Shown here: in pieces, positions 2 to 63,834 of the stretch
Position numbering within the stretch: the stretch's first letter is position 1
How the letters are laid out: the number at the start of each line of letters is the position of its first letter
Assembly: GCF_003334405.1 (NCBI RefSeq)
Contig: NZ_QOWM01000004.1
Origin: Escherichia coli
GTDB lineage: Bacteria; Pseudomonadota; Gammaproteobacteria; Enterobacterales; Enterobacteriaceae
Strand: one strand, 5' to 3'
DNA length: 64,000 nucleotides
The notes under the pieces: model-generated
Seen by the model: only the letters and a program-made list of their open reading frames with translations
Told to the model about the DNA's origin: nothing
The model's database searches: none
Position numbers and translations under genes: made by a program

Positions 2-550
2 GACCGCGCAAAACAGGCGGCAGAAGCAAAAGGTGTGAGCGACAACATGCAATTTATACATTGCGCCGCTCAGGATGTTGCTTCGCATTTGGAAACGCCC
101 GTTGATCTGATATTGTTCCATGCGGTGCTCGAGTGGGTGGCTGATCCCCGCAGCGTATTGCAGACCCTGTGGTCAGTGTTGCGTCCAGGCGGCGTGTTGT
201 CGTTAATGTTCTACAATGCGCATGGTTTGTTGATGCATAACATGGTCGCCGGGAATTTTGATTACGTGCAGGCGGGAATGCCGAAAAAGAAAAAACGGAC
301 GCTTTCGCCAGATTATCCACGCGACCCGGCGCAGGTTTATCTGTGGCTGGAAGAAGCTGGTTGGCAAATTATGGGTAAGACAGGCGTTCGCGTGTTTCAT
401 GATTATCTGCGCGAGAAACACCAGCAGCGCGACTGCTATGAAGCATTACTTGAATTAGAAACGCGTTATTGCCGTCAGGAACCGTATATTACCCTGGGGC
501 GTTATATTCATGTCACCGCGCGCAAACCGCAGAGCAAGGATAAAGTATGA
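2..550 (+). CDS. cmoM: SAM-dependent tRNA methyltransferase CmoM/SmtA, 3' portion (5' end upstream of window)
   Basis: Reading frame open from window edge to stop at 548-550; methyltransferase-like residues; sits immediately upstream of mukF as in E. coli. Confidence 0.85.
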
Positions 551-1869
551 GTGAATTTTCCCAGACAGTCCCCGAACTGGTTGCCTGGGCCAGAAAAAAT
601 GACTTCTCCATCTCGCTGCCGGTAGACCGACTCTCTTTTCTGCTGGCGGTTGCCACGCTGAACGGCGAGCGTCTGGATGGTGAGATGAGTGAAGGCGAGC
701 TGGTGGATGCATTCCGCCATGTGAGTGATGCGTTTGAGCAAACCAGCGAAACCATCGGCGTGCGCGCCAATAACGCGATCAACGACATGGTGCGTCAACG
801 TCTGCTGAACCGCTTTACCAGCGAGCAGGCGGAAGGGAACGCAATTTACCGTCTGACGCCGCTCGGCATCGGCATTACTGACTACTACATCCGTCAGCGC
901 GAGTTTTCTACGCTGCGTCTTTCTATGCAGTTGTCGATTGTGGCGGGTGAGCTCAAACGCGCAGCAGATGCCGCCGAAGAGGGCGGTGATGAATTTCACT
1001 GGCACCGTAATGTCTATGCGCCACTGAAATATTCGGTAGCAGAAATTTTCGACAGTATCGACCTGACGCAACGTCTGATGGACGAACAGCAGCAGCAGGT
1101 GAAGGACGATATCGCCCAGTTGCTGAACAAAGACTGGCGGGCGGCGATTTCCAGCTGTGAATTGTTGCTTTCGGAAACTTCCGGAACGCTGCGTGAATTG
1201 CAGGATACGCTGGAAGCGGCAGGCGACAAATTGCAGGCTAATCTGTTGCGCATTCAGGATGCGACGATGACCCATGACGATCTGCATTTCGTCGATCGTC
1301 TGGTGTTCGATCTGCAGAGCAAACTCGATCGTATTATCAGTTGGGGCCAGCAATCCATCGACTTGTGGATTGGCTACGACCGCCACGTACACAAATTTAT
1401 TCGTACCGCGATCGATATGGATAAAAACCGCGTCTTTGCTCAGCGGTTACGTCAGTCGGTACAAACCTATTTTGATGAGCCGTGGGCGCTAACTTATGCC
1501 AATGCCGATCGTCTGCTGGATATGCGTGACGAAGAGATGGCACTGCGCGATGAAGAAGTGACTGGGGAACTTCCTGAGGATCTGGAATACGAAGAGTTTA
1601 ACGAGATCCGCGAACAGCTGGCGGCGATCATCGAAGAACAACTTGCCGTGTACAAAACCAGACAAGTGCCGCTGGATCTTGGTCTGGTGGTACGCGAATA
1701 TCTGTCACAGTATCCGCGTGCACGTCACTTTGACGTTGCGCGTATTGTTATTGATCAGGCGGTACGTCTTGGCGTAGCGCAAGCAGATTTCACCGGACTG
1801 CCAGCGAAATGGCAGCCGATTAATGATTACGGAGCCAAGGTACAGGCGCATGTCATCGACAAATATTGA
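547..1869 (+). CDS. mukF: Chromosome partition protein MukF (kleisin)
   Basis: 440-aa ORF recognised as MukF; start overlaps cmoM stop; followed by mukE and mukB. Confidence 0.96.
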
Positions 1870-2554
1870 ACAAGTGATGCCGGTTAAGCTGGCGCAGGCG
1901 CTGGCGAATCCGTTATTTCCGGCGCTGGACAGCGCCTTACGTTCAGGACGCCATATTGGCCTCGACGAACTGGATAATCATGCATTCCTGATGGATTTTC
2001 AGGAATATCTGGAAGAGTTTTACGCGCGTTATAACGTTGAGCTTATTCGCGCACCAGAAGGGTTCTTCTATTTACGCCCACGTTCCACCACGCTGATCCC
2101 TCGTTCCGTCTTGTCGGAACTGGATATGATGGTCGGGAAAATCCTCTGTTATCTCTATCTCAGCCCGGAACGGCTGGCGAATGAGGGGATTTTCACCCAG
2201 CAGGAACTGTACGACGAACTGCTCACCCTGGCCGATGAAGCAAAACTGCTGAAACTGGTGAACAACCGTTCAACCGGTTCAGACGTTGACCGTCAGAAGT
2301 TGCAGGAGAAAGTACGTTCTTCGCTCAACCGTCTGCGTCGTTTAGGCATGGTGTGGTTTATGGGCCACGACAGCAGCAAGTTTCGCATTACCGAATCGGT
2401 GTTCCGCTTCGGAGCCGATGTGCGTGCTGGCGACGATCCCCGTGAAGCACAGCGTCGCCTGATTCGTGATGGCGAAGCAATGCCGATTGAAAATCATCTG
2501 CAACTCAACGATGAAACCGAAGAGAATCAGCCAGATAGCGGAGAGGAAGAATAA
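1850..2554 (+). CDS. mukE: Chromosome partition protein MukE
   Basis: 234-aa product from ATG at 1850 (MSSTNIEQV...), inside the last 20 nt of mukF; the ORF-track start at 1823 is an upstream in-frame extension. Confidence 0.93.
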
Positions 2555-5500
2555 TGATTGAACGCGGTAAATTTCGCTCACTGACGCTGATTAACTGGAA
2601 CGGCTTTTTTGCCCGAACTTTTGACCTTGACGAGCTGGTCACGACGCTTTCTGGCGGTAACGGGGCGGGTAAATCCACCACCATGGCGGCGTTCGTTACG
2701 GCGCTGATCCCCGACCTGACCCTGCTGCATTTCCGTAACACTACGGAAGCCGGGGCCACCAGCGGTTCGCGCGATAAAGGTCTGCACGGTAAGCTGAAAG
2801 CGGGTGTCTGTTATTCGATGCTCGACACCATTAACTCGCGCCACCAGCGCGTGGTGGTCGGTGTGCGTCTGCAACAGGTTGCCGGACGCGATCGTAAAGT
2901 GGATATCAAGCCGTTTGCCATTCAGGGACTGCCGATGTCGGTGCAGCCGACACAGCTGGTGACCGAAACCCTGAACGAACGCCAGGCGCGCGTGCTGCCG
3001 CTTAACGAGCTGAAAGACAAGCTCGAGGCGATGGAAGGCGTGCAGTTTAAACAGTTCAACTCCATTACTGATTACCACTCGCTGATGTTCGATCTGGGCA
3101 TCATCGCGCGTCGTCTGCGCTCCGCATCTGACCGTAGCAAATTCTATCGTCTGATCGAAGCTTCGCTGTATGGCGGGATCTCCAGTGCCATTACCCGTTC
3201 TCTGCGCGACTACCTGTTGCCAGAAAACAGCGGCGTGCGTAAAGCGTTCCAGGACATGGAAGCGGCGCTGCGTGAAAACCGTATGACGCTGGAAGCGATT
3301 CGTGTCACCCAGTCGGACCGCGACCTGTTTAAGCATCTGATCAGCGAAGCCACCAACTACGTGGCGGCGGACTACATGCGTCACGCCAACGAGCGCCGTG
3401 TCCATCTCGACAAAGCCCTGGAGTTTCGTCGCGAGCTACATACTTCGCGTCAGCAACTGGCGGCTGAGCAGTACAAACACGTCGATATGGCGCGTGAGCT
3501 GGCAGAGCACAACGGTGCCGAAGGCGATCTGGAAGCGGATTATCAGGCGGCCAGTGATCACCTGAACCTGGTGCAAACCGCACTGCGTCAGCAGGAGAAG
3601 ATCGAACGCTACGAAGCGGATCTCGATGAGCTGCAGATCCGTCTGGAAGAGCAAAATGAAGTGGTGGCAGAAGCCATCGAACGCCAGGAAGAGAATGAGG
3701 CTCGTGCGGAAGCTGCCGAACTGGAAGTGGACGAGCTGAAAAGCCAGCTTGCTGACTACCAGCAGGCGCTGGACGTCCAGCAAACGCGCGCGATCCAGTA
3801 TAACCAGGCGATTGCTGCGCTTAATCGTGCCAAAGAACTGTGCCATCTGCCGGACTTAACCGCCGACTGCGCCGCCGAATGGCTGGAAACCTTCCAGGCG
3901 AAAGAGCTGGAAGCGACTGAAAAAATGCTCTCTCTTGAGCAGAAAATGAGCATGGCGCAAACCGCGCACAGCCAGTTTGAGCAGGCTTATCAGCTGGTGG
4001 TGGCAATCAACGGCCCACTGGCGCGTAACGAGGCGTGGGATGTCGCTCGCGAACTATTGCGCGAAGGGGTCGATCAGCGTCACCTGGCAGAGCAGGTTCA
4101 GCCGCTGCGGATGCGATTAAGCGAACTGGAACAGCGTCTACGCGAGCAGCAAGAAGCTGAGCGTCTGCTGGCAGATTTCTGCAAACGTCAGGGCAAGAAT
4201 TTTGATATCGACGAACTGGAAGCCCTGCATCAGGAACTGGAAGCACGCATTGCCTCTCTTTCCGATAGCGTGTCTAACGCCCGTGAAGAGCGCATGGCAC
4301 TGCGCCAGGAGCAGGAACAGCTGCAGTCTCGCATTCAGAGTTTGATGCAGCGTGCGCCGGTTTGGCTGGCAGCGCAAAACAGTCTCAACCAGTTGAGCGA
4401 ACAGTGCGGCGAAGAGTTTACCTCCAGCCAGGACGTCACCGAATATCTGCAACAGTTGCTGGAGCGTGAGCGAGAGGCGATTGTTGAACGCGATGAAGTG
4501 GGCGCGCGCAAAAACGCCGTCGATGAAGAGATCGAACGTTTAAGCCAGCCTGGCGGCTCTGAAGATCAGCGTCTGAACGCGCTGGCGGAGCGTTTTGGTG
4601 GTGTGCTGCTGTCAGAAATTTATGACGACGTTAGCCTGGAAGATGCGCCGTACTTCTCAGCGCTGTATGGCCCGTCACGCCACGCCATCGTGGTGCCAGA
4701 TCTGTCACAGGTAACTGAACACCTGGAAGGCTTGACCGATTGCCCGGAAGATCTCTATCTGATCGAAGGAGATCCGCAGTCATTCGATGACAGCGTGTTC
4801 AGCGTTGATGAGCTGGAAAAAGCGGTAGTGGTGAAAATCGCCGATCGTCAGTGGCGTTATTCACGTTTCCCGGAAGTGCCGCTGTTTGGTCGTGCTGCGC
4901 GTGAAAGCCGTATTGAAAGCCTCCATGCCGAGCGTGAAGTGCTTTCCGAACGCTTCGCCACGCTCTCCTTTGATGTACAGAAAACTCAGCGTCTGCATCA
5001 GGCGTTCAGCCGCTTTATCGGCAGTCATCTGGCGGTTGCGTTTGAGTCTGACCCGGAAGCAGAAATCCGTCAACTGAACAGCCGTCGCGTCGAACTGGAG
5101 CGGGCGTTAAGTAATCATGAAAATGATAACCAGCAGCAGCGTATTCAGTTTGAGCAGGCGAAAGAGGGCGTTACGGCGCTGAACCGCATTCTGCCGCGTC
5201 TCAACCTGTTGGCTGATGACAGCCTGGCGGATCGCGTCGATGAAATCCGCGAACGTCTGGATGAAGCCCAGGAAGCCGCGCGTTTTGTTCAGCAGTTTGG
5301 CAATCAACTGGCGAAACTGGAACCGATTGTTTCGGTATTGCAGAGCGACCCGGAACAGTTCGAACAGTTAAAAGAAGATTACGCGTACTCTCAGCAGATG
5401 CAGCGCGATGCCCGTCAGCAGGCGTTTGCCCTGACGGAAGTGGTGCAGCGTCGTGCGCACTTTAGCTATTCTGACTCGGCAGAAATGCTTAGCGGTAACA

Positions 5501-10587: not shown

Positions 10588-10687
10588 TGCCGGATGCGGC
10601 ACGAGCGCCTTATCCGGCCTACAAAATCGTGCAAATTCAAAATATTGCAGGGGACGCGTAGGCCTGATAAGCGTAGCGCATCAGGCA
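10588..10687. repeat. REP pair (BIME-like) in gloC-aspC intergenic region
   Basis: tgccggatgcggcacgagcgccttatccggcctac and inverted copy gtaggcctgataagcgtagcgcatcaggca; classic REP consensus. Confidence 0.85.
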
Positions 10688-19503: not shown

Positions 19504-20272
19504 TTACCCCTGTTTTCTCAGGCGAGTTTCAGATTCACCACGTTGCATCACCCGTTGCAACACCTCCGCTTCCAGCTCCGCTAATCGCACCGACCCTAAT
19601 CGACGCGGACGGGGGATATCCACTGTCAAATCCAGACCAATTTTTCCCTCTTCAATTAACAGCACCCGGTCAGCCATCGCTACCGCTTCGCTCACATCAT
19701 GCGTCACCAACAGTACGGTAAAGCCGTGCTCCTGCCAAAGTGACACAATCAAATCCTGCATCTCGAGTCGCGTTAAGGCGTCCAGCGCCCCGAGCGGTTC
19801 ATCAAGCAACAATAATCCCGGTCGATGAATCAACGCTCTTGCCAGCGCCACTCGCTGTTTCTGCCCGCCAGAAAGTGCGGCAGGCCATTCCCCTGCGCGA
19901 TTCTCCAGTCCTACCGCAGCCAACGCTCGACGTGCGGCATCGCGCCACTGGCCTTTAAGGCCTAACCCAACGTTATCAATCACCGATTTCCACGGTAGCA
20001 GACGCGCATCCTGAAACATCATTCGCGTGTCTTCCTGAATTTCAGCCAGCGGTGTGGTGCCCGCTAACACATCGCCTGCGGTTGGCGTTTCCAGACCTGC
20101 CAGCAGGCGCAGCAGGGTACTTTTGCCACCACCGCTGCGGCCCACCACCGCCACAAACTGACCTGCCGGAATATGTAAATCCAGTTGGTTCAGGACGATA
20201 TTTTTCCGCGTAATGTTTGCTTACTGCATTGAGCAACAATGGCGTGCCCTGGTTCAGACGAGCAGTATTCAT
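19504..20272 (-). pseudogene. ssuB: Aliphatic sulfonate ABC transporter ATPase SsuB, disrupted by +1 frameshift
   Basis: ATG at 20270-20272 gives [23 protein letters not shown], then low-complexity sequence; the Walker-A-containing body (…[16 protein letters not shown]… to stop at 19504) is in another frame; frames are rejoined by deleting one T from the T5 run at 20201-20205. Confidence 0.85.
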
Positions 20273-21070: not shown

Positions 21071-22216
21071 TTAGCTTTGCGCGACTTTACGGGGGATAAA
21101 ATCATTCGCCACCGCTTCGCCTTGCGGATTCAGCGGCTGCGGCTGGGGAATTTCCGGGATGGCGACATCCAGAAGCGGGAACAGCAACTCGCCAACCCGA
21201 TACGCTTCTTCCAGATGCGGATAGCCCGAAAGCACAAAACTGTCGATGCCAAGCGCGGCATATTCGTTGATTCGCGCAGCGACCGTAGGACCATCGCCCA
21301 CCAGCGCCGTCCCGGCACCGCCGCGCACTAAGCCAACGCCCGCCCATAAATTGGGGCTGATCTCCAGATTGTCGCGCTTGCCGTTATGTAACGCCGCCAT
21401 TCGCTGTTGCCCTACGGAATCCGTCCGGGCGAATGCGGCCTGTGCTTTGGCGATAGTTTCATCATCAAGATGCGAGATTAACCGCTCGGCGGCCTGCCAC
21501 GCTTCGTCGTTAGTTTCACGAACAATCACATGCAGACGAATACCGAAACGAATTTTGCGTCCATGCGCGGCAGCTTTCGCCCGCACTTGTTCGATTTTCT
21601 CTTTAACCAGTTCCGGCGGTTCGCCCCAGGTGAGGTAGAGATCAACCTGTTCTGCCGCCAGCTCCTGGGCGACATCTGACGATCCGCCAAAGTAAAGTGG
21701 CGGATACGGCTGTTGAATCGCCGGGAAGAGCAGTTTTGCTCCGCGCACATGAATATGTTTACCGTTGAAATCGACGGTTTCTCTCTGCAATAAACGCCGC
21801 CAGACCTGGGTAAATTCCGCCGAGGCTTCGTAGCGCTCGCTATGATCAAGGAACACTCCGTCGCCTGCCAGCTCTTGTGGATCGCTGCCTGTGACCAGGT
21901 TAAACAACGCACGTCCATTTGAGAGACGGTCAAGCGTGGCGGCCTGGCGGGCGGCAACGGTAGGTGAGGTTACGCTGGGACGCAGGGCGACAAGAAACTT
22001 CAGCCGCTGCGTCACCGGGATCATCGATGCGGCAACCAGCCACGCATCTTCGCAGGAGCGCCCCGTTGGAATTAGCACACCGGTATAGCCAAGACGATCC
22101 GCCGCTTGCGCAATTTGTTGCAGATAACCGTGATCAACCGGGCGTGAACCTTCTTCCGTTCCCAGATAATGCCCGTCACCGTGGGTCGGTAAAAACCAGA
22201 ACATATTCAGACTCAT
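21071..22216 (-). CDS. ssuD: FMNH2-dependent alkanesulfonate monooxygenase
   Basis: 381-aa ORF recognised as SsuD ([19 protein letters not shown]...). Confidence 0.96.
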
Positions 22217-25443: not shown

Positions 25444-29105
<3,662 letters not shown>

Positions 29106-29666: not shown

Positions 29667-30182
29667 ATGTTGAAACGGATAATCTGGATTCTGTTCTTAT
29701 TGGGATTAACGTGGGGCTGTGAGCTATTTGCCCATGATGGCACGGTCAACATTAGCGGATCGTTTCGCCGTAATACATGCGTGCTGGCACAGGATAGCAA
29801 GCAAATCAATGTGCAGTTAGGCGATGTCTCGCTGACACGTTTTTCTCATGGGAATTATGGCCCGGAGAAATCTTTCATCATTAATTTGCAGGATTGCGGA
29901 ACAGATGTCAGCACGGTTGACGTCACCTTTTCAGGAACCCCCGACGGAGTGCAGAGCGAAATGTTGTCCATTGAAAGTGGTACGGATGCAGCCAGCGGGC
30001 TGGCAATTGCGATTCTGGATGATGCGAAGATATTGATTCCGCTTAACCAGGCGAGTAAAGACTACAGCCTACATAGCGGTAAGGTGCCATTAACTTTTTA
30101 TGCGCAATTGCGACCTGTCAATAGCGATGTGCAGTCGGGTAAAGTGAATGCCAGCGCGACATTTGTACTTCATTATGACTAA
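29667..30182 (+). CDS. ycbV: Fimbrial-like protein YcbV
   Basis: 171-aa product from ATG 29667 preceded by aaggag RBS; track ORF start at 29619 would overlap ycbU. Confidence 0.85.
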   Translation: MLKRIIWILFLLGLTWGCELFAHDGTVNISGSFRRNTCVLAQDSKQINVQLGDVSLTRFSHGNYGPEKSFIINLQDCGTDVSTVDVTFSGTPDGVQSEMLSIESGTDAASGLAIAILDDAKILIPLNQASKDYSLHSGKVPLTFYAQLRPVNSDVQSGKVNASATFVLHYD

Positions 30183-30909: not shown

Positions 30910-30995
30910 TTTTTTTGCCGCAGGTCAATTCCCTTTTGGTCCGAACTCGCACATAATACGCCCCCGGTTTGCACACCGGGAATCCAGGAGAGTTC

Positions 30996-32006
30996 ATGTA
31001 CTACCCCTTCGTTCGTAAAGCCCTTTTCCAGCTCGATCCAGAGCGCGCTCATGAGTTTACTTTTCAGCAATTACGCCGTATTACAGGAACGCCGTTTGAA
31101 GCACTGGTGCGGCAGAAAGTGCCTGCGAAACCTGTTAACTGCATGGGCCTGACGTTTAAAAATCCGCTTGGTCTGGCAGCCGGTCTTGATAAAGACGGGG
31201 AGTGCATTGACGCGTTAGGCGCGATGGGATTTGGATCGATCGAGATCGGTACCGTCACGCCACGTCCACAGCCAGGTAATGACAAGCCGCGTCTCTTTCG
31301 TCTGGTAGATGCCGAAGGTTTGATCAACCGTATGGGCTTTAATAATCTTGGCGTTGATAACCTCGTAGAGAACGTAAAAAAGGCCCATTATGACGGCGTC
31401 CTGGGTATTAACATCGGCAAAAATAAAGATACGCCAGTGGAGCAGGGCAAAGATGACTATCTGATTTGTATGGAAAAAATCTATGCCTATGCGGGATATA
31501 TCGCCATCAATATTTCATCGCCGAATACCCCAGGATTACGCACGCTGCAATATGGTGAAGCGCTGGATGATCTCTTAACCGCGATTAAAAATAAGCAAAA
31601 TGATTTGCAAGCGATGCACCATAAATATGTGCCGATCGCAGTGAAGATCGCGCCGGATCTTTCTGAAGAAGAATTGATCCAGGTTGCCGATAGTTTAGTT
31701 CGCCATAATATTGATGGCGTTATTGCAACCAATACCACACTCGATCGTTCTCTTGTTCAGGGAATGAAAAATTGCGATCAAACCGGTGGCTTAAGTGGTC
31801 GTCCGCTTCAGTTAAAAAGCACCGAAATTATTCGCCGCTTGTCACTGGAATTAAACGGTCGCTTACCGATCATCGGTGTTGGCGGCATCGACTCGGTTAT
31901 CGCTGCGCGTGAAAAGATTGCTGCGGGTGCCTCACTGGTGCAAATTTATTCTGGTTTTATTTTTAAAGGTCCGCCGCTGATTAAAGAAATCGTTACCCAT
32001 ATCTAA
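30996..32006 (+). CDS. pyrD: Dihydroorotate dehydrogenase (quinone)
   Basis: 336-aa product from ATG 30996 ([21 protein letters not shown]...); recognised as PyrD. Confidence 0.96.
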
Positions 32007-32179: not shown

Positions 32180-32722
32180 ATGCGAATTAAACCAGACGAT
32201 AACTGGCGTTGGTATTACGATGAAGAGCACGATCGAATGATGCTCGATTTAGCCAATGGTATGCTATTTCGCTCACGTTTTGCGCGCAAGATGTTGACTC
32301 CAGATGCCTTTTCTCCCGCAGGCTTTTGCGTTGACGACGCCGCGCTCTATTTCTCTTTTGAAGAAAAGTGCCGCGATTTTAATTTATCTAAAGAACAAAA
32401 AGCCGAACTGGTGCTGAATGCACTGGTAGCAATTCGCTATCTCAAACCGCAAATGCCGAAAAGCTGGCATTTTGTTTCCCATGGTGAAATGTGGGTGCCC
32501 ATGCCGGGCGATGCGGCCTGCGTTTGGTTGAGCGATACTCACGAGCAGGTCAATTTGCTGGTCGTTGAATCTGGCGAAAATGCCGCACTATGCCTGCTGG
32601 CACAACCCTGCGTTGTTATTGCGGGTCGCGCGATGCAGTTGGGCGACGCCATTAAAATCATGAACGACAGGCTGAAACCGCAGGTTAATGTTGACAGCTT
32701 CAGCCTCGAACAGGCAGTCTAA
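32180..32722 (+). CDS. zapC: Cell division protein ZapC
   Basis: 180-aa product from ATG 32180 ([24 protein letters not shown]...); recognised as ZapC/YcbW. Confidence 0.9.
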
Positions 32723-56291: not shown

Positions 56292-56570
56292 ATGTCGAAA
56301 GTCTGCATAATTGCCTGGGTTTACGGGCGAGTTCAGGGCGTAGGATTTCGCTACACCACACAGTACGAAGCGAAAAGACTGGGTTTAACCGGGTACGCCA
56401 AAAATCTTGACGATGGCAGCGTGGAAGTGGTTGCTTGCGGTGAAGAAGGGCAGGTGGAAAAATTAATGCAGTGGTTAAAGAGTGGCGGCCCGCGTTCTGC
56501 GCGTGTAGAACGGGTGCTCAGCGAGCCGCATCATCCCTCGGGGGAATTAACCGATTTTCGTATCCGTTAA
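56292..56570 (+). CDS. yccX: Acylphosphatase
   Basis: 92-aa product from ATG 56292 ([23 protein letters not shown]...); track ORF is a long upstream extension overlapping rlmI. Confidence 0.9.
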
Positions 56571-57852: not shown

Positions 57853-57940
57853 TGGCGGAAGCGCAGAGATTCGAACTCTGGAACCCTTTCGGGTCGCCGG
57901 TTTTCAAGACCGGTGCCTTCAACCGCTCGGCCACACTTCC
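57853..57940 (-). tRNA. serT: tRNA-Ser (anticodon UGA)
   Basis: 88-nt minus-strand sequence GGAAGTGTGGCCGAGCGG...CTTCCGCCA with long variable arm, anticodon loop CUUGAAA, encoded CCA. Confidence 0.95.
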
Positions 57941-58366: not shown

Positions 58367-59485
58367 ATGAATAACGAGGAAACATTTTACCAGGCCATGC
58401 GGCGTCAGGGCGTTACCCGGCGCAGCTTTCTCAAATATTGTAGTCTGGCTGCCACGTCGCTGGGATTAGGCGCGGGAATGGCACCAAAGATTGCCTGGGC
58501 GCTGGAGAACAAACCGCGCATTCCGGTGGTATGGATCCACGGTCTGGAATGCACCTGCTGTACCGAATCTTTTATCCGCTCCGCTCACCCACTGGCGAAG
58601 GACGTCATCCTTTCCCTGATTTCCCTCGATTACGACGATACTTTGATGGCTGCCGCCGGAACCCAGGCGGAAGAAGTCTTTGAAGACATCATCACGCAAT
58701 ACAATGGCAAATATATCCTCGCAGTAGAAGGTAATCCGCCGCTGGGCGAGCAGGGGATGTTCTGTATCAGCAGCGGTCGACCGTTTATTGAGAAACTCAA
58801 ACGTGCCGCTGCCGGAGCCAGCGCGATTATCGCCTGGGGAACCTGCGCGTCCTGGGGCTGCGTGCAGGCCGCGCGACCCAATCCGACGCAGGCAACGCCT
58901 ATCGACAAAGTCATCACCGACAAACCCATTATCAAAGTACCTGGCTGCCCGCCGATCCCGGATGTGATGAGCGCCATCATTACTTACATGGTGACCTTTG
59001 ATCGCTTGCCAGATGTCGACAGAATGGGCCGTCCGCTGATGTTCTATGGTCAGCGAATCCACGATAAATGCTATCGCCGCGCCCACTTCGACGCCGGAGA
59101 GTTCGTCCAGAGTTGGGATGATGACGCTGCCCGCAAAGGTTACTGCCTGTACAAAATGGGCTGCAAAGGGCCTACCACCTATAACGCCTGTTCCTCCACA
59201 CGCTGGAATGATGGCGTTTCTTTCCCAATCCAGTCTGGTCACGGCTGCCTGGGCTGTGCGGAAAATGGTTTCTGGGATCGCGGTTCGTTCTACAGCCGCG
59301 TGGTCGATATTCCGCAAATGGGTACTCATTCCACCGCCGATACCGTCGGTTTAACCGCGCTTGGCGTGGTGGCAGCGGCTGTTGGTGTGCACGCAGTCGC
59401 CAGCGCCGTTGACCAGCGCAGACGTCATAACCAGCAACCTACAGAAACCGAACATCAGCCAGGCAATGAGGATAAACAGGCATGA
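58367..59485 (+). CDS. hyaA: Hydrogenase 1 small subunit (Tat signal)
   Basis: 372-aa product from ATG 58367 ([27 protein letters not shown]...); twin-arginine motif. Confidence 0.96.
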
Positions 59486-61275
59486 GCACTCAGTACGAAA
59501 CTCAGGGATACACCATCAATAATGCCGGACGCCGCCTGGTGGTCGACCCGATTACGCGCATCGAAGGCCACATGCGCTGCGAAGTGAATATTAACGATCA
59601 GAATGTGATCACCAATGCCGTCTCCTGCGGCACCATGTTTCGCGGGCTGGAGATCATCCTACAAGGGCGCGACCCGCGCGATGCGTGGGCGTTCGTTGAA
59701 CGTATCTGCGGCGTCTGTACTGGCGTACACGCCCTGGCTTCGGTTTACGCCATCGAAGATGCTATCGGTATTAAAGTGCCGGACAACGCCAATATCATCC
59801 GCAACATTATGCTGGCAACGCTCTGGTGCCACGATCATCTGGTGCACTTCTATCAGCTTGCCGGGATGGACTGGATCGATGTGTTAGATGCGCTGAAAGC
59901 CGACCCGCGGAAAACCTCCGAACTGGCGCAAAGTCTCTCCTCTTGGCCGAAATCATCCCCTGGCTATTTCTTCGACGTACAAAACCGCCTGAAAAAATTT
60001 GTTGAAGGCGGGCAGTTGGGGATCTTCCGCAATGGCTACTGGGGGCACCCGCAGTACAAACTGCCGCCAGAAGCTAACCTGATGGGCTTTGCCCACTATC
60101 TCGAAGCTCTCGATTTCCAGCGTGAAATTGTCAAAATCCACGCGGTCTTTGGCGGTAAAAACCCGCATCCAAACTGGATTGTCGGCGGGATGCCTTGCGC
60201 CATCAACATTGACGAAAGCGGCGCGGTCGGGGCAGTCAATATGGAACGCCTGAACCTGGTGCAGTCAATTATCACCCGCACGGCGGACTTCATTAACAAC
60301 GTGATGATCCCCGACGCCTTAGCCATCGGTCAGTTCAACAAACCGTGGAGCGAAATCGGCACTGGTCTTTCTGATAAATGCGTTCTCAGCTACGGCGCAT
60401 TCCCGGATATTGCCAACGACTTTGGCGAGAAAAGTCTGCTGATGCCTGGCGGCGCGGTGATTAACGGCGACTTCAACAATGTGCTGCCAGTGGATTTGGT
60501 TGATCCGCAGCAGGTGCAGGAGTTTGTCGACCACGCCTGGTATCGATATCCCAACGATCAGGTCGGGCGTCATCCGTTCGATGGCATCACCGACCCGTGG
60601 TACAACCCCGGCGATGTCAAAGGCAGCGATACCAACATTCAGCAGCTGAATGAACAGGAACGCTACTCGTGGATCAAAGCGCCACGCTGGCGCGGTAACG
60701 CGATGGAAGTGGGGCCGCTGGCGCGCACGTTAATCGCTTATCACAAAGGCGATGCTGCGACCGTTGAGTCGGTCGATCGCATGATGTCGGCGTTGAACCT
60801 GCCGCTTTCCGGTATCCAGTCAACGTTAGGCCGCATTTTGTGCCGCGCGCACGAAGCGCAGTGGGCCGCAGGTAAGTTGCAGTATTTCTTCGACAAGCTG
60901 ATGACCAACCTGAAAAACGGCAATCTCGCCACTGCTTCCACGGAAAAATGGGAACCTGCAACCTGGCCGACAGAGTGCCGTGGTGTCGGTTTTACCGAAG
61001 CGCCGCGCGGGGCGTTAGGCCACTGGGCCGCCATTCGCGATGGCAAGATTGATCTCTACCAGTGCGTGGTGCCGACCACCTGGAACGCCAGCCCGCGCGA
61101 TCCCAAAGGGCAGATTGGCGCTTATGAAGCTGCGCTGATGAACACCAAAATGGCGATCCCCGAGCAACCGCTGGAGATCCTGCGTACTCTGCACAGCTTT
61201 GACCCGTGCCTCGCCTGTTCAACACACGTGCTGGGCGACGACGGTAGCGAGCTGATCTCCGTGCAGGTGCGTTAA
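59482..61275 (+). CDS. hyaB: Hydrogenase 1 large subunit ([NiFe])
   Basis: 597-aa ORF with N-terminal [10 protein letters not shown] and C-terminal DPCLACSTH motifs; ATGA overlap with hyaA. Confidence 0.97.
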
Positions 61276-61293
61276 CAGCGAAGGAGAATCATC

Positions 61294-62001
61294 ATGCAAC
61301 AGAAAAGCGACAACGTTGTCAGCCACTATGTCTTTGAAGCGCCAGTGCGCATCTGGCACTGGTTGACGGTGTTATGCATGGCGGTGTTGATGGTCACCGG
61401 ATACTTTATCGGCAAGCCGCTACCTTCCGTCAGCGGCGAGGCGACGTATCTGTTCTATATGGGCTACATCAGGTTAATTCACTTCAGCGCCGGGATGGTT
61501 TTTACCGTGGTTTTGCTGATGCGGATCTACTGGGCTTTTGTTGGCAATCGATACTCCCGCGAGCTGTTTATCGTGCCGGTATGGCGTAAAAGCTGGTGGC
61601 AGGGCGTGTGGTATGAAATCCGCTGGTATCTGTTTCTGGCAAAACGTCCGAGTGCCGATATAGGCCATAATCCCATCGCCCAGGCGGCGATGTTCGGCTA
61701 TTTCCTGATGTCGGTCTTTATGATCATCACTGGTTTTGCGCTGTACAGCGAACACAGCCAGTACGCTATTTTTGCGCCGTTCCGTTATGTGGTGGAATTT
61801 TTCTACTGGACGGGTGGCAACTCAATGGACATTCACAGCTGGCATCGGCTGGGGATGTGGCTGATTGGCGCGTTTGTGATCGGTCATGTCTACATGGCGC
61901 TGCGTGAAGACATCATGTCCGACGACACGGTGATCTCCACCATGGTCAACGGCTACCGTAGCCACAAATTTGGCAAAATAAGTAACAAGGAGCGTTCATG
62001 A
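61294..62001 (+). CDS. hyaC: Hydrogenase 1 b-type cytochrome subunit
   Basis: 235-aa membrane protein. Confidence 0.95.
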
Positions 62002-62585
62002 GCGAGCAACGCGTGGTGGTCATGGGGCTGGGCAACCTGCTGTGGGCCGATGAAGGCTTCGGCGTGCGGGTGGCGGAACGGCTGTATGCCCATTACCACT
62101 GGCCCGAGTATGTGGAGATTGTCGATGGCGGTACTCAGGGACTGAACTTGCTGGGGTATGTCGAAAGCGCCAGCCATCTGTTGATTCTCGATGCCATTGA
62201 CTACGGGCTGGAACCTGGAACGCTGCGAACCTATGCCGGAGAACGCATTCCGGCTTATCTCAGCGCGAAGAAAATGAGCCTGCATCAGAACAGTTTCTCC
62301 GAAGTGTTGGCGCTGGCGGATATCCGCGGACATCTGCCAGCACATATTGCCCTCGTCGGTCTGCAACCCGCAATGCTCGACGACTACGGCGGTAGCCTGA
62401 GCGAACTGGCACGGGAGCAACTGCCCGCTGCGGAACAGGCGGCGCTGGCGCAGCTTGCTGCGTGGGGAATTGTGCCGCAACCGGCTAATGAATCGCGCTG
62501 TCTCAATTATGACTGTCTGTCGATGGAAAATTACGAAGGCGTTCGCTTGCGCCAGTACCGGATGACACAGGAGGAGCAGGGATGA
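61998..62585 (+). CDS. hyaD: Hydrogenase 1 maturation protease
   Basis: 195-aa ORF; ATGA overlap with hyaC. Confidence 0.94.
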
Positions 62586-62980
62586 GCAACGACACGCCAT
62601 TTGATGCGTTGTGGCAACGAATGCTGGCGCGCGGCTGGACGCCAGTCAGTGAATCCCGTCTTGACGACTGGCTTACGCAAGCGCCAGACGGCGTGGTGTT
62701 ATTAAGCAGTGACCCGAAACGCACGCCAGAGGTCAGCGATAATCCGGTAATGATTGGCGAATTACTGCGCGAGTTTCCCGACTATACATGGCAGGTGGCG
62801 ATTGCTGACCTTGAGCAGAGCGAAGCCATCGGCGATCGCTTTGGCGTCTTTCGCTTTCCTGCCACTTTAGTGTTTACCGGCGGAAACTATCGCGGCGTGC
62901 TGAATGGTATTCACCCGTGGGCGGAACTGATAAACCTGATGCGCGGGCTTGTCGAACCGCAGCAGGAGCGTGCCTCATGA
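62582..62980 (+). CDS. hyaE: Hydrogenase 1 operon protein HyaE
   Basis: 132-aa ORF; ATGA overlap with hyaD. Confidence 0.93.
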
Positions 62981-63834
62981 GCGAAACTTTTTTCCATCTG
63001 CTGGGGCCAGGAACGCAACCGAACGATGACAGTTTCAGCATGAATCCACTGCCGATCACCTGTCAGGTGAATGATGAACCGAGTATGGCGGCCCTGGAGC
63101 AATGTGCTCACAGCCCGCAGGTGATTGCGCTGTTAAACGAGTTACAACATCAACTAAGCGAACGCCAACCGCCGTTGGGCGAGGTGCTGGCAGTCGATCT
63201 GTTAAATCTCAACGCCGACGATCGTCACTTTATCAATACGCTTCTCGGGGAAGGGGAAGTGTCAGTGCGCATTCAGCAGGCTGACGACAGTGAAAGTGAA
63301 ATACAGGAGGCGATCTTCTGCGGATTATGGCGGGTGCGCAGACGTCGCGGCGAAAAGTTGCTGGAGGACAAACTGGAGGCTGGCTGCGCGCCGCTGGCGT
63401 TGTGGCAGGCGGCAACGCAAAATCTCTTGCCGACAGATTCGCTGTTACCGCCGCCCATTGATGGCCTGATGAATGGCCTACCGTTGGCGCATGAGTTACT
63501 GGCACATGTACGTAACCCCGACGCGCAGCCGCACAGCATTAATCTGACGCAATTACCCATCAGCGAGGCTGATCGGCTTTTTCTCTCACGTCTCTGTGGG
63601 CCGGGAAATATTCAGATTCGTACCATTGGCTATGGCGAGAGCTATATCAACGCCACGGGGTTACGCCATGTCTGGCATTTACGCTGTACGGACACCTTAA
63701 AAGGCCCGTTACTGGAAAGTTATGAAATCTGCCCAATACCGGAAGTGGTGCTGGCAGCGCCAGAAGATTTGGTCGACTCTGCGCAGCGGCTTAGCGAGGT
63801 ATGTCAGTGGCTGGCGGAAGCTGCACCGACGTAA
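62977..63834 (+). CDS. hyaF: Hydrogenase 1 operon protein HyaF
   Basis: 285-aa product from ATG 62977 ([20 protein letters not shown]...); ATGA overlap with hyaE. Confidence 0.93.

Follow-up and report, generated by a model that had tools for sequence, protein, structure and literature searches.

Overlapping stop and start codons at gene junctions of the hya, ssu, muk and pqi operons in a chromosomal segment of Escherichia coli

Results

The overlapping stop and start codons within the hya, ssu, muk and pqi operons are most probably ordinary operon-internal junctions of the commonest prokaryotic type, in which the start codon shares bases with the preceding stop codon and the downstream Shine-Dalgarno sequence is embedded in the 3' end of the gene before it. 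Work on such overlaps, and on how they relate to translational coupling, goes back to 1980 and includes surveys across genomes, and this junction type is already well described. The overlaps reported here matter little beyond the quality of the annotation.

The stretch of DNA that was analysed (64,000 nucleotides, hereafter the window) is E. coli chromosome: sequence matching gave about 100% identity to E. coli chromosomes. Its gene layout is cmoM'-mukFEB … ssuEADCB … pqiABC … hyaABCDEF, and the gene coordinates (Table 1) are those of RefSeq, carried over onto the window from two annotated genomes. After this transfer all of the window's open reading frames proved to be intact, with the sole exception of ssuB. 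We take hyaABCDEF, ssuEADCB, cmoM-mukFEB and pqiABC to be established operons. The six hya genes have about 100% identity to the RefSeq-annotated hyaA-F of E. coli K-12 and other strains, and they stand in the order small subunit, large subunit, cytochrome b, maturation protease, HyaE and HyaF. The interval 58367-63834, to which the original prediction had assigned the overlaps of all four operons, extends exactly from the hyaA start to the hyaF stop; ssu, muk and pqi lie elsewhere in the window.

Table 1. Coordinates of the genes, gene junctions and ssuB homopolymer discussed in the text (positions in the window).
Feature	Position	Strand	Basis or comment
cmoM/mukF ATGA overlap (-4)	547..550	+	read from sequence
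mukF/mukE 20-nt overlap	1850..1869	+	mukE ATG 1850 to mukF TGA 1867-1869
mukE/mukB TAATG overlap (-1)	2552..2556	+	shared base 2554, read from sequence
ssuB A5 run, nt 68-72 of ssuB	20201..20205	-	A4 in other E. coli genomes
ssuC/ssuB ATGA overlap (-4)	20269..20272	-	strong GAAGGAGG Shine-Dalgarno upstream
ssuA/ssuD ATGA overlap (-4)	22213..22216	-	read from sequence; ssuA is the upstream gene
ssuE/ssuA 8-nt overlap ATGCGTAA	23165..23172	-	read from sequence
pqiB/pqiC ATGA overlap (-4)	41124..41127	+	read from sequence
hyaABCDEF operon, [NiFe] hydrogenase 1	58367..63834	+	about 100% identity to annotated E. coli genomes
hyaA	58367-59485	+	intact ORF, ATG start
hyaA/hyaB ATGA overlap (-4)	59482..59485	+	read from sequence; GAGGA Shine-Dalgarno 9 nt upstream
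hyaB	59482-61275	+	intact ORF, ATG start
hyaB/hyaC 18-nt intergenic spacer	61276..61293	+	read from sequence; contains AAGGAG Shine-Dalgarno
hyaC	61294-62001	+	intact ORF, ATG start
hyaC/hyaD ATGA overlap (-4)	61998..62001	+	read from sequence; AAGGAG Shine-Dalgarno 5 nt upstream
hyaD	61998-62585	+	intact ORF, ATG start
hyaD/hyaE ATGA overlap (-4)	62582..62585	+	read from sequence; AGGAGGAG motif upstream
hyaE	62582-62980	+	intact ORF, ATG start
hyaE/hyaF ATGA overlap (-4)	62977..62980	+	read from sequence; CAGGAG motif upstream
hyaF	62977-63834	+	intact ORF, ATG start

Every one of the predicted overlaps is present when the junctions are read directly: the four ATGA overlaps of hya (A/B, C/D, D/E and E/F), those of ssuC/ssuB and pqiB/pqiC, the 8 nt shared by ssuE and ssuA, and, in muk, both the 20 nt of mukF/mukE and the TAATG of mukE/mukB, the start of mukE being contestable. 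The pair predicted as ssuD/ssuA also has its ATGA, but was named in the reverse of the direction of transcription. The types represented are thus NTGA (-4) and TAATG (-1), together with -8 and -20; eight ATGA junctions and one TAATG junction consist of same-strand reading frames in which the start shares bases with the upstream stop. The ssuC/ssuB junction is intact in spite of the frameshift in ssuB, pqiA/pqiB is a gap of +4, and hyaB/hyaC is the sole hya junction without an overlap. The window holds three further junctions of this sort that had gone unremarked, the ATGA of cmoM/mukF and the overlaps elfC/elfG (-10) and ycbV/ycbF (-35). An Rfam scan of the window gave no match at any gene junction.

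The -4 pattern in the window is beyond chance. Among the 22 tightly spaced same-strand pairs (defined as -40 to +40), eight have a spacing of exactly -4 (P = 1.5e-10 under a uniform null); all eight of the window's genes that end in ATGA overlap the next gene, and the remaining 11 genes with a TGA stop all lack an A before it. Spacings of -8 to +6 occur in 11 of the 37 same-strand pairs of the window, as against 707/2987 in E. coli genome-wide, so that the window shows no enrichment over the genome-wide rate (binomial P = 0.24). These overlaps are an ordinary feature at normal E. coli frequency, -4 being the most frequent spacing in this species and the range -8 to +6 holding 24% of its same-strand pairs (PMC10666635).

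The original prediction had read the overlaps as signs of translational coupling. The junctions and their favourable geometry (-4, -1 or -8, with the Shine-Dalgarno sequence in the upstream gene) speak for this claim, but an overlap taken as proof does not stand; coupling at the overlaps of the window may nevertheless reasonably be inferred. Coupling drops steeply with distance (PMC10666635), and the -4, -1 and -8 pairs all fall within the range of about -8 to +10 nt used in that study, mukF/mukE at -20 lying outside it. The overlaps leave no space for a terminator or promoter between the genes, as expected of a single transcript, and promoter-like or terminator-like sites inside hya and ssu are no commoner than in shuffled sequence. 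Shine-Dalgarno duplex energy and local RNA folding (from -40 to +30 around each start, long-range pairing being beyond the scope of such folding) were computed for all 55 starts of the window. A Shine-Dalgarno-like motif accompanies each of the overlapped starts, the duplex energies ranging from -3.1 to -11.7 kcal/mol (mean -6.7), and among the 55 starts the overlapped and the independently initiated ones do not differ in Shine-Dalgarno strength. Nor is any local occluding structure predicted at the overlapped starts (mean z +0.5, unpaired probability 0.53, the same as at independent starts), and the sequestered Shine-Dalgarno and start required for coupling by RNA unfolding are not seen in local folding. 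Since both Shine-Dalgarno strength and local structure match those of independent starts, de novo initiation at the overlapped starts is equally possible. A literature search on hya, muk and pqi found, within the library searched, no published coupling test of their gene pairs.

The cross-species comparison of junctions covered hya and included seven close orthologous operons from Escherichia, Citrobacter and Edwardsiella. The ATGA overlaps of hyaA/hyaB and hyaC/hyaD are both kept in 7/7, and the gap at hyaB/hyaC is 18-19 nt in 7/7; no overlap was found at a hyaB/hyaC-type junction among the 40 loci examined. At hyaD/hyaE the -4 spacing is confined to Escherichia (3/7), Citrobacter and Edwardsiella having -7 or +5, and hyaE/hyaF is spaced at -4 in four of the seven, at -1 in two and at +3 in one. 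The overlaps are stable at hyaA/B and hyaC/D in close relatives and evolutionarily labile at hyaD/E, at hyaE/F and in distant homologues, the spacings across these three sets being -7, -4, -1, +3, +5 and larger.

The ssuB frameshift named in the original prediction is confirmed. The A5 run of the gene contains one extra A, a +1 insertion that shifts the frame and brings in an early stop, the TGA at 20042-20044 (codon 77 of 255), with loss of the Walker A motif. None of the 5318 full-length ssuB matches in complete E. coli genomes is exact: all are one base different (98.5%), all have A4 and an intact ORF of 255 aa, and the A5 run recurs in none of them. The frameshift may be either a mutation private to this sequence or a sequencing error in the homopolymer. 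Programmed frameshifting was considered but does not fit an insertion found in the window sequence alone (0/5318 matches), and was rejected; moreover, five consecutive A are too few for transcriptional slippage, and no prfB-type +1 site is known at ssuB. Ribosomes would, as predicted, terminate early in this last gene of ssuEADCB, at the codon given above. The accompanying argument, that coupling spares the upstream genes from polar effects, does not follow, because polarity acts on downstream genes, with or without translational coupling. Directly 3' of ssuB are a terminator with a 13-bp stem and the convergent pepN, and the frameshift can affect nothing but SsuB and possibly how stable the mRNA is at its 3' end. 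If real, it would inactivate the ATPase of the sulfonate ABC transporter.

Discussion

At ordinary junctions of this type, a ribosome that ends the upstream reading frame would halt only a few bases from the next AUG, and initiation would be promoted there. This could take place by either of two routes: the ribosome or its 30S subunit might be retained (termination-reinitiation), or the ribosome might keep the initiation region from folding, so that a new 30S subunit can use it. Depletion of ribosome recycling factor left coupling unchanged, which speaks against a main role for reinitiation (PMC7538156). By either route the output of the downstream gene would be partly linked to translation of the upstream one, an arrangement that would suit the obligate partners HyaA/HyaB, MukF/E/B, SsuC/B and PqiB/C.

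It is possible, though rather unlikely, that the overlaps are simply by-products of genome compaction, with the downstream genes translated independently and no regulatory role for the junction. The NTGA type arises easily, because any ATG with an A after it has a TGA within it. Brown and Wade, in their review, ascribe the abundance of the -4 spacing to ease of evolution (PMC12548453). Compaction would agree with downstream Shine-Dalgarno sequences that match those of first-in-operon genes in strength, with the absence of predicted local occluding structure, and with the free change of spacing between species at hyaD/E, at hyaE/F and in the distant homologues. Ribosome profiling points the same way, relative translation being about equally variable in overlapping and non-overlapping pairs (Burkhardt 2017, PMC5318159), as does the native E. 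coli pair bioB/bioF, which has an ATGA overlap without coupling (Huber 2019, PMC6728339). However, the same dual-reporter study found four of the five native E. coli ATGA pairs to be coupled, and subunits of heteromeric complexes are 4.5-fold enriched at short spacings (PMC10666635). Nor would compaction alone predict that the small/large-subunit junction lies within -8 to +10 in 34/52 hya-type loci while the large subunit/cytochrome b junction does so in only 2/40.

A more elaborate interpretation of the hya operon, which we regard as doubtful, is that it is built of translational modules under selection, with synthesis of the HyaAB heterodimer locked at 1:1 and the cytochrome b and maturation proteins set independently. 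In such an arrangement, hyaA/B and hyaC/D may be held at ATGA while hyaB and hyaC are always separated by the 18-19-nt Shine-Dalgarno spacer, and the recurrent ATGAGY (Met-Ser) junction may be a preferred context for reinitiation. The idea is compatible with the conservation in 7/7 close orthologues, with the lack of B/C overlaps in 40 loci and with a second codon AGY at 26/43 of the cross-species -4 junctions; this falls short of a demonstration.

Finally, some of the overlaps could be artefacts of start annotation, the true starts lying downstream after short gaps. MukE is the clearest candidate: ATG 1850 gives 234 aa and the overlap of -20, and ATG 1877 gives 225 aa and a gap of +7; whether mukF and mukE share 20 nt or leave 7 nt between them thus hinges on a contestable start. 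E. coli MukE structures exist in both forms (225 aa starting MPVKLA in 7V8P and 3RPU, 234 aa in 3EUH), and in-frame alternatives to the start also occur within 5-12 codons in hyaD, ssuD, pqiC, hyaE, ssuB and ssuA. Nevertheless, the Photorhabdus MukE starts MSSTHIEQF, in agreement with the 234-aa form, and that of Haemophilus ducreyi has Ile at the position of E. coli Met10 and must therefore start upstream, so that this comparison favours ATG 1850. Moreover, a GGAG/AAGG motif lies 5' of ATG 1850 and none 5' of ATG 1877. For the other genes, a later start would cut into what resembles a signal peptide at the SsuA N-terminus and would truncate that of PqiC (MKKWLVTIAALWLAG), which is like the beginning of a lipoprotein signal peptide, and when HyaB, HyaD, HyaE and HyaF are aligned to relatives by tblastn, the match begins with residue 1, right at the ATGA. 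Misannotated starts are a highly improbable explanation of the overlaps.

Set beside known systems, the ordinary junctions of the window have counterparts of both kinds. The bioB/bioF pair and the chloroplast atpB/atpE pair have an ATGA overlap like those described here, and yet the downstream cistron was found to be translated independently (PMC3241655 for atpB/atpE); an ATGA overlap alone is accordingly no proof of coupling. In the classical coupled E. coli pairs trpB/trpA, trpE/trpD, galT/galK and rplK/rplA, which are cited in PMC7538156, nonsense mutations showed the dependence, whereas for the window pairs coupling is predicted from the sequence. The closest counterparts are the -4 (NTGA) and -1 (TAATG/TGATG) pairs of Huber 2019/2023, coupled by termination-reinitiation, with hyfH/I, astD/B, ydbH/ynbE and menD/H as the E. 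coli pairs tested. The 20-nt overlap of mukF/mukE lies outside the range of -8 to +10 that Huber et al. treat as predicting coupling. The junction geometry is nonetheless the same, and, as in the Huber pairs, the Shine-Dalgarno sequence is in the upstream reading frame, the junction is within a known operon and many of the pairs are partners of one complex.

Identity of the sequence and its annotation

Gene coordinates were carried over from the RefSeq annotations of K-12 MG1655 and isolate F829; all 55 transferred genes except ssuB have a start, a stop and an open frame. Positions 1-24000 match E. coli chromosomes at ~100%, except for one single-base length difference. The segment 58000-64000 is also ~100% identical to E. 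coli chromosomes, is present in 5426/5426 complete genomes searched and is annotated as hyaA-hyaF; the interval of the original prediction, 58367-63834, has the hyaA start and the hyaF stop as its exact ends. The source is close to K-12 without being K-12: the 26 kb of 38000-64000 differ from K-12 MG1655 at six single bases, and for 1-24000 the top matches are to non-K-12 phylogroup A-like strains.

Above the gathering score, Rfam identifies a PyrD leader (30928-31001, +), a tRNA (57856-57940, -; tRNA-Ser in the K-12 annotation) and the ES036/CssrF sRNA downstream of gloC (10623-10665, +). Three convergent pairs have overlapping 3' ends: zapC/ycbX (4 nt, 32719-32722), yccX/tusE (4 nt, 56567-56570) and sxy/yccS (38 nt, 47958-47995). 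Two long ORFs run antisense, one of 287 aa within hyaA (58466-59329, -) and one of 215 aa spanning hyaC-hyaE (61953-62600, -); both are probably coding-strand shadow ORFs.

Overlapping junctions and their frequency

Each of the 37 same-strand neighbour junctions in the window was read straight from the sequence. All of the hya, ssu, muk and pqi overlaps originally listed are present, with two amendments: the pair given as ssuD/ssuA does share ATGA, but in the opposite gene order, ssuA being upstream; and the list omitted three same-strand overlaps (cmoM/mukF, elfC/elfG and ycbV/ycbF). The last of these is so long that the ycbF start merits checking.

Gene junctions read from the sequence
Junction	Feature	Coordinates	Strand	Remark
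hyaA/hyaB	ATGA overlap	59482-59485	+	
hyaB/hyaC	18-nt gap with AAGGAG	61276-61293	+	
hyaC/hyaD	ATGA overlap	61998-62001	+	
hyaD/hyaE	ATGA overlap	62582-62585	+	
hyaE/hyaF	ATGA overlap	62977-62980	+	
ssuE/ssuA	8-nt overlap, ATGCGTAA			
ssuA/ssuD	ATGA overlap	22213-22216	-	ssuA is the upstream gene
ssuC/ssuB	ATGA overlap	20269-20272	-	
pqiB/pqiC	ATGA overlap	41124-41127		
cmoM/mukF	ATGA overlap	547-550		same strand; newly listed
mukF/mukE	20-nt overlap	1850-1869		
mukE/mukB	TAATG	common base 2554		
elfC/elfG	10-nt overlap (-10)	28035-28044		same strand; newly listed
ycbV/ycbF	35-nt overlap (-35)	30148-30182		same strand; newly listed

The pattern is not random: the stop-to-start spacing (negative for overlaps) is exactly -4 in 8 of the 22 tightly spaced pairs (uniform-null P = 1.5e-10), and an overlapping successor follows 8/8 genes ending in ATGA, while A precedes TGA in 0/11 of the remaining TGA-terminated genes. 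With respect to frequency, the window is normal for E. coli, spacings of -8 to +6 occurring in 11/37 same-strand pairs versus 707/2987 genome-wide (P = 0.24). The hya operon overlaps at 4/5 junctions, somewhat more than the 15% to over 30% of operon pairs given as base rates in the literature (PMC7538156, PMC5318159), the comparison being post hoc.

Re-annotated starts could turn overlaps into gaps. For hya, SsuA and PqiC the evidence favors the annotated starts, mukE being the weak point. The tblastn alignments of the hya products to relatives start at residue 1, precisely at ATGA, and the N-termini of SsuA and PqiC (MKKWLVTIAALWLAG) are signal-peptide-like, such that a later start would cut into signal-like sequence. 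For mukE, ATG 1850 gives 234 aa and a spacing of -20 to mukF, and ATG 1877 gives 225 aa and a gap of +7. Among MukE structures, 3EUH has the 234-aa form and both 7V8P and 3RPU the form starting MPVKLA. We favor ATG 1850 as the probable start, because Photorhabdus MukE begins MSSTHIEQF, H. ducreyi MukE has Ile where E. coli has Met10, and GGAG/AAGG lies upstream of ATG 1850, whereas no Shine-Dalgarno motif was found upstream of ATG 1877.

The ssuB frameshift

A one-base insertion gives ssuB an A5 run (20201-20205, - strand; ssuB nt 68-72) in place of the A4 of the reference. Read from the intact ATGA junction, the frame shifts at codon 24 and the product lacks the Walker A motif (residues 44-51). 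Among complete E. coli genomes, a 66-nt query over the site was matched 5318 times over its full length, each time at 98.5% (one difference) and never exactly; the insertion is thus private to this sequence. Either the gene for the sulfonate transporter ATPase carries a true null allele here, or the extra base is a homopolymer sequencing error. The expectation that ribosomes would stop early in ssuB is borne out by a premature TGA at 20042-20044, codon 77 of 255. It had also been argued that coupling would spare the upstream genes any polar effect, which does not follow from coupling. No gene is exposed to polarity from the frameshift, since ssuB is the final cistron of ssuEADCB and is followed by a 13-bp-stem terminator (19498-19469) and the convergent pepN.

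Conservation of the hya junctions

One HyaD scan of species-representative genomes yielded 80 loci, in which HyaA-F homologues were placed by tblastn and stop-to-start distances measured; at distant loci (HyaD identity 62% or less) start codons were picked by a nearest-start heuristic. In the seven close orthologues (Escherichia, E. albertii, Citrobacter, Edwardsiella), hyaA/B and hyaC/D are invariably ATGA (7/7 each), and hyaB/C always has a gap of +18 or +19 with a Shine-Dalgarno motif (7/7). The other junctions vary: hyaD/E is -4 in three, -7 in three and +5 in one, and hyaE/F is -4 in four, -1 in two and +3 in one. In distant homologues, the spacing between small and large subunit is -4 at 7 loci and -1 at another 7, and falls within -8 to +10 in 27/45; that between large subunit and cytochrome b does so in just 2/33. 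With the close orthologues included, the latter junction shows no overlap in 40 loci, unlike its neighbors. These distances indicate that tight spacing recurs, centered on the obligate heterodimer pair, while the exact overlap is evolutionarily labile.

The sequence is ATGAGC (Met-Ser) at each of the four hya overlaps (59482, 61998, 62582, 62977), and across the HyaD-containing loci (L003-L082) the second codon is AGY in 26/43 junctions at -4. This conserved modular pattern, with A/B and C/D fixed at ATGA, B/C always spaced and junctions mostly ATGAGY, is mildly interesting. In distant hya-like operons (L010-L081), ~300-770 nt separate HyaD from the HyaE homologue at 56/63 loci, an interval presumably filled by a putative extra maturation gene missing from E. 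coli hya.

Does overlap imply coupling?

A Shine-Dalgarno-like motif precedes each overlapped start, inside the upstream gene; the mean duplex energy of -6.7 kcal/mol does not differ significantly from that of independent starts (mean -5.6). Between -40 and +30, local folding shows no gain in stability over shuffled sequence (mean z +0.5), the initiation regions of overlapped and independent starts are equally accessible, and an occluding local hairpin has no support. The sequence is thus compatible both with reinitiation and with de novo initiation.

The literature is divided on what overlap implies. Dual-reporter assays showed coupling for 4/5 native ATGA pairs of E. coli, though not for bioB/bioF (Huber 2019, PMC6728339). 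Coupling declines with distance, within about 20-40 nt, and subunits of heteromeric complexes are 4.5-fold enriched among short spacings (PMC10666635). Depletion of ribosome recycling factor left coupling unchanged (PMC7538156), evidence against reinitiation being the principal mechanism. In ribosome profiling, the relative translation of overlapping pairs is about as variable as that of others (PMC5318159), and a 2025 review considers the coupling mechanism unsettled and NTGA abundance partly a matter of ease of evolution (PMC12548453). A literature search covering hya, muk and pqi turned up no coupling experiment on these pairs.

The original reading of these junctions as translationally coupled stands in part: the overlaps are real, the polarity argument is flawed, and coupling of the hya, ssu, muk and pqi pairs is plausible on sequence grounds, if generic. 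No spacing is more frequent than -4, be it in E. coli or across prokaryotes (PMC10666635, PMC12548453), and the stop/start overlaps in the window are a textbook feature, already known and at normal genomic frequency.
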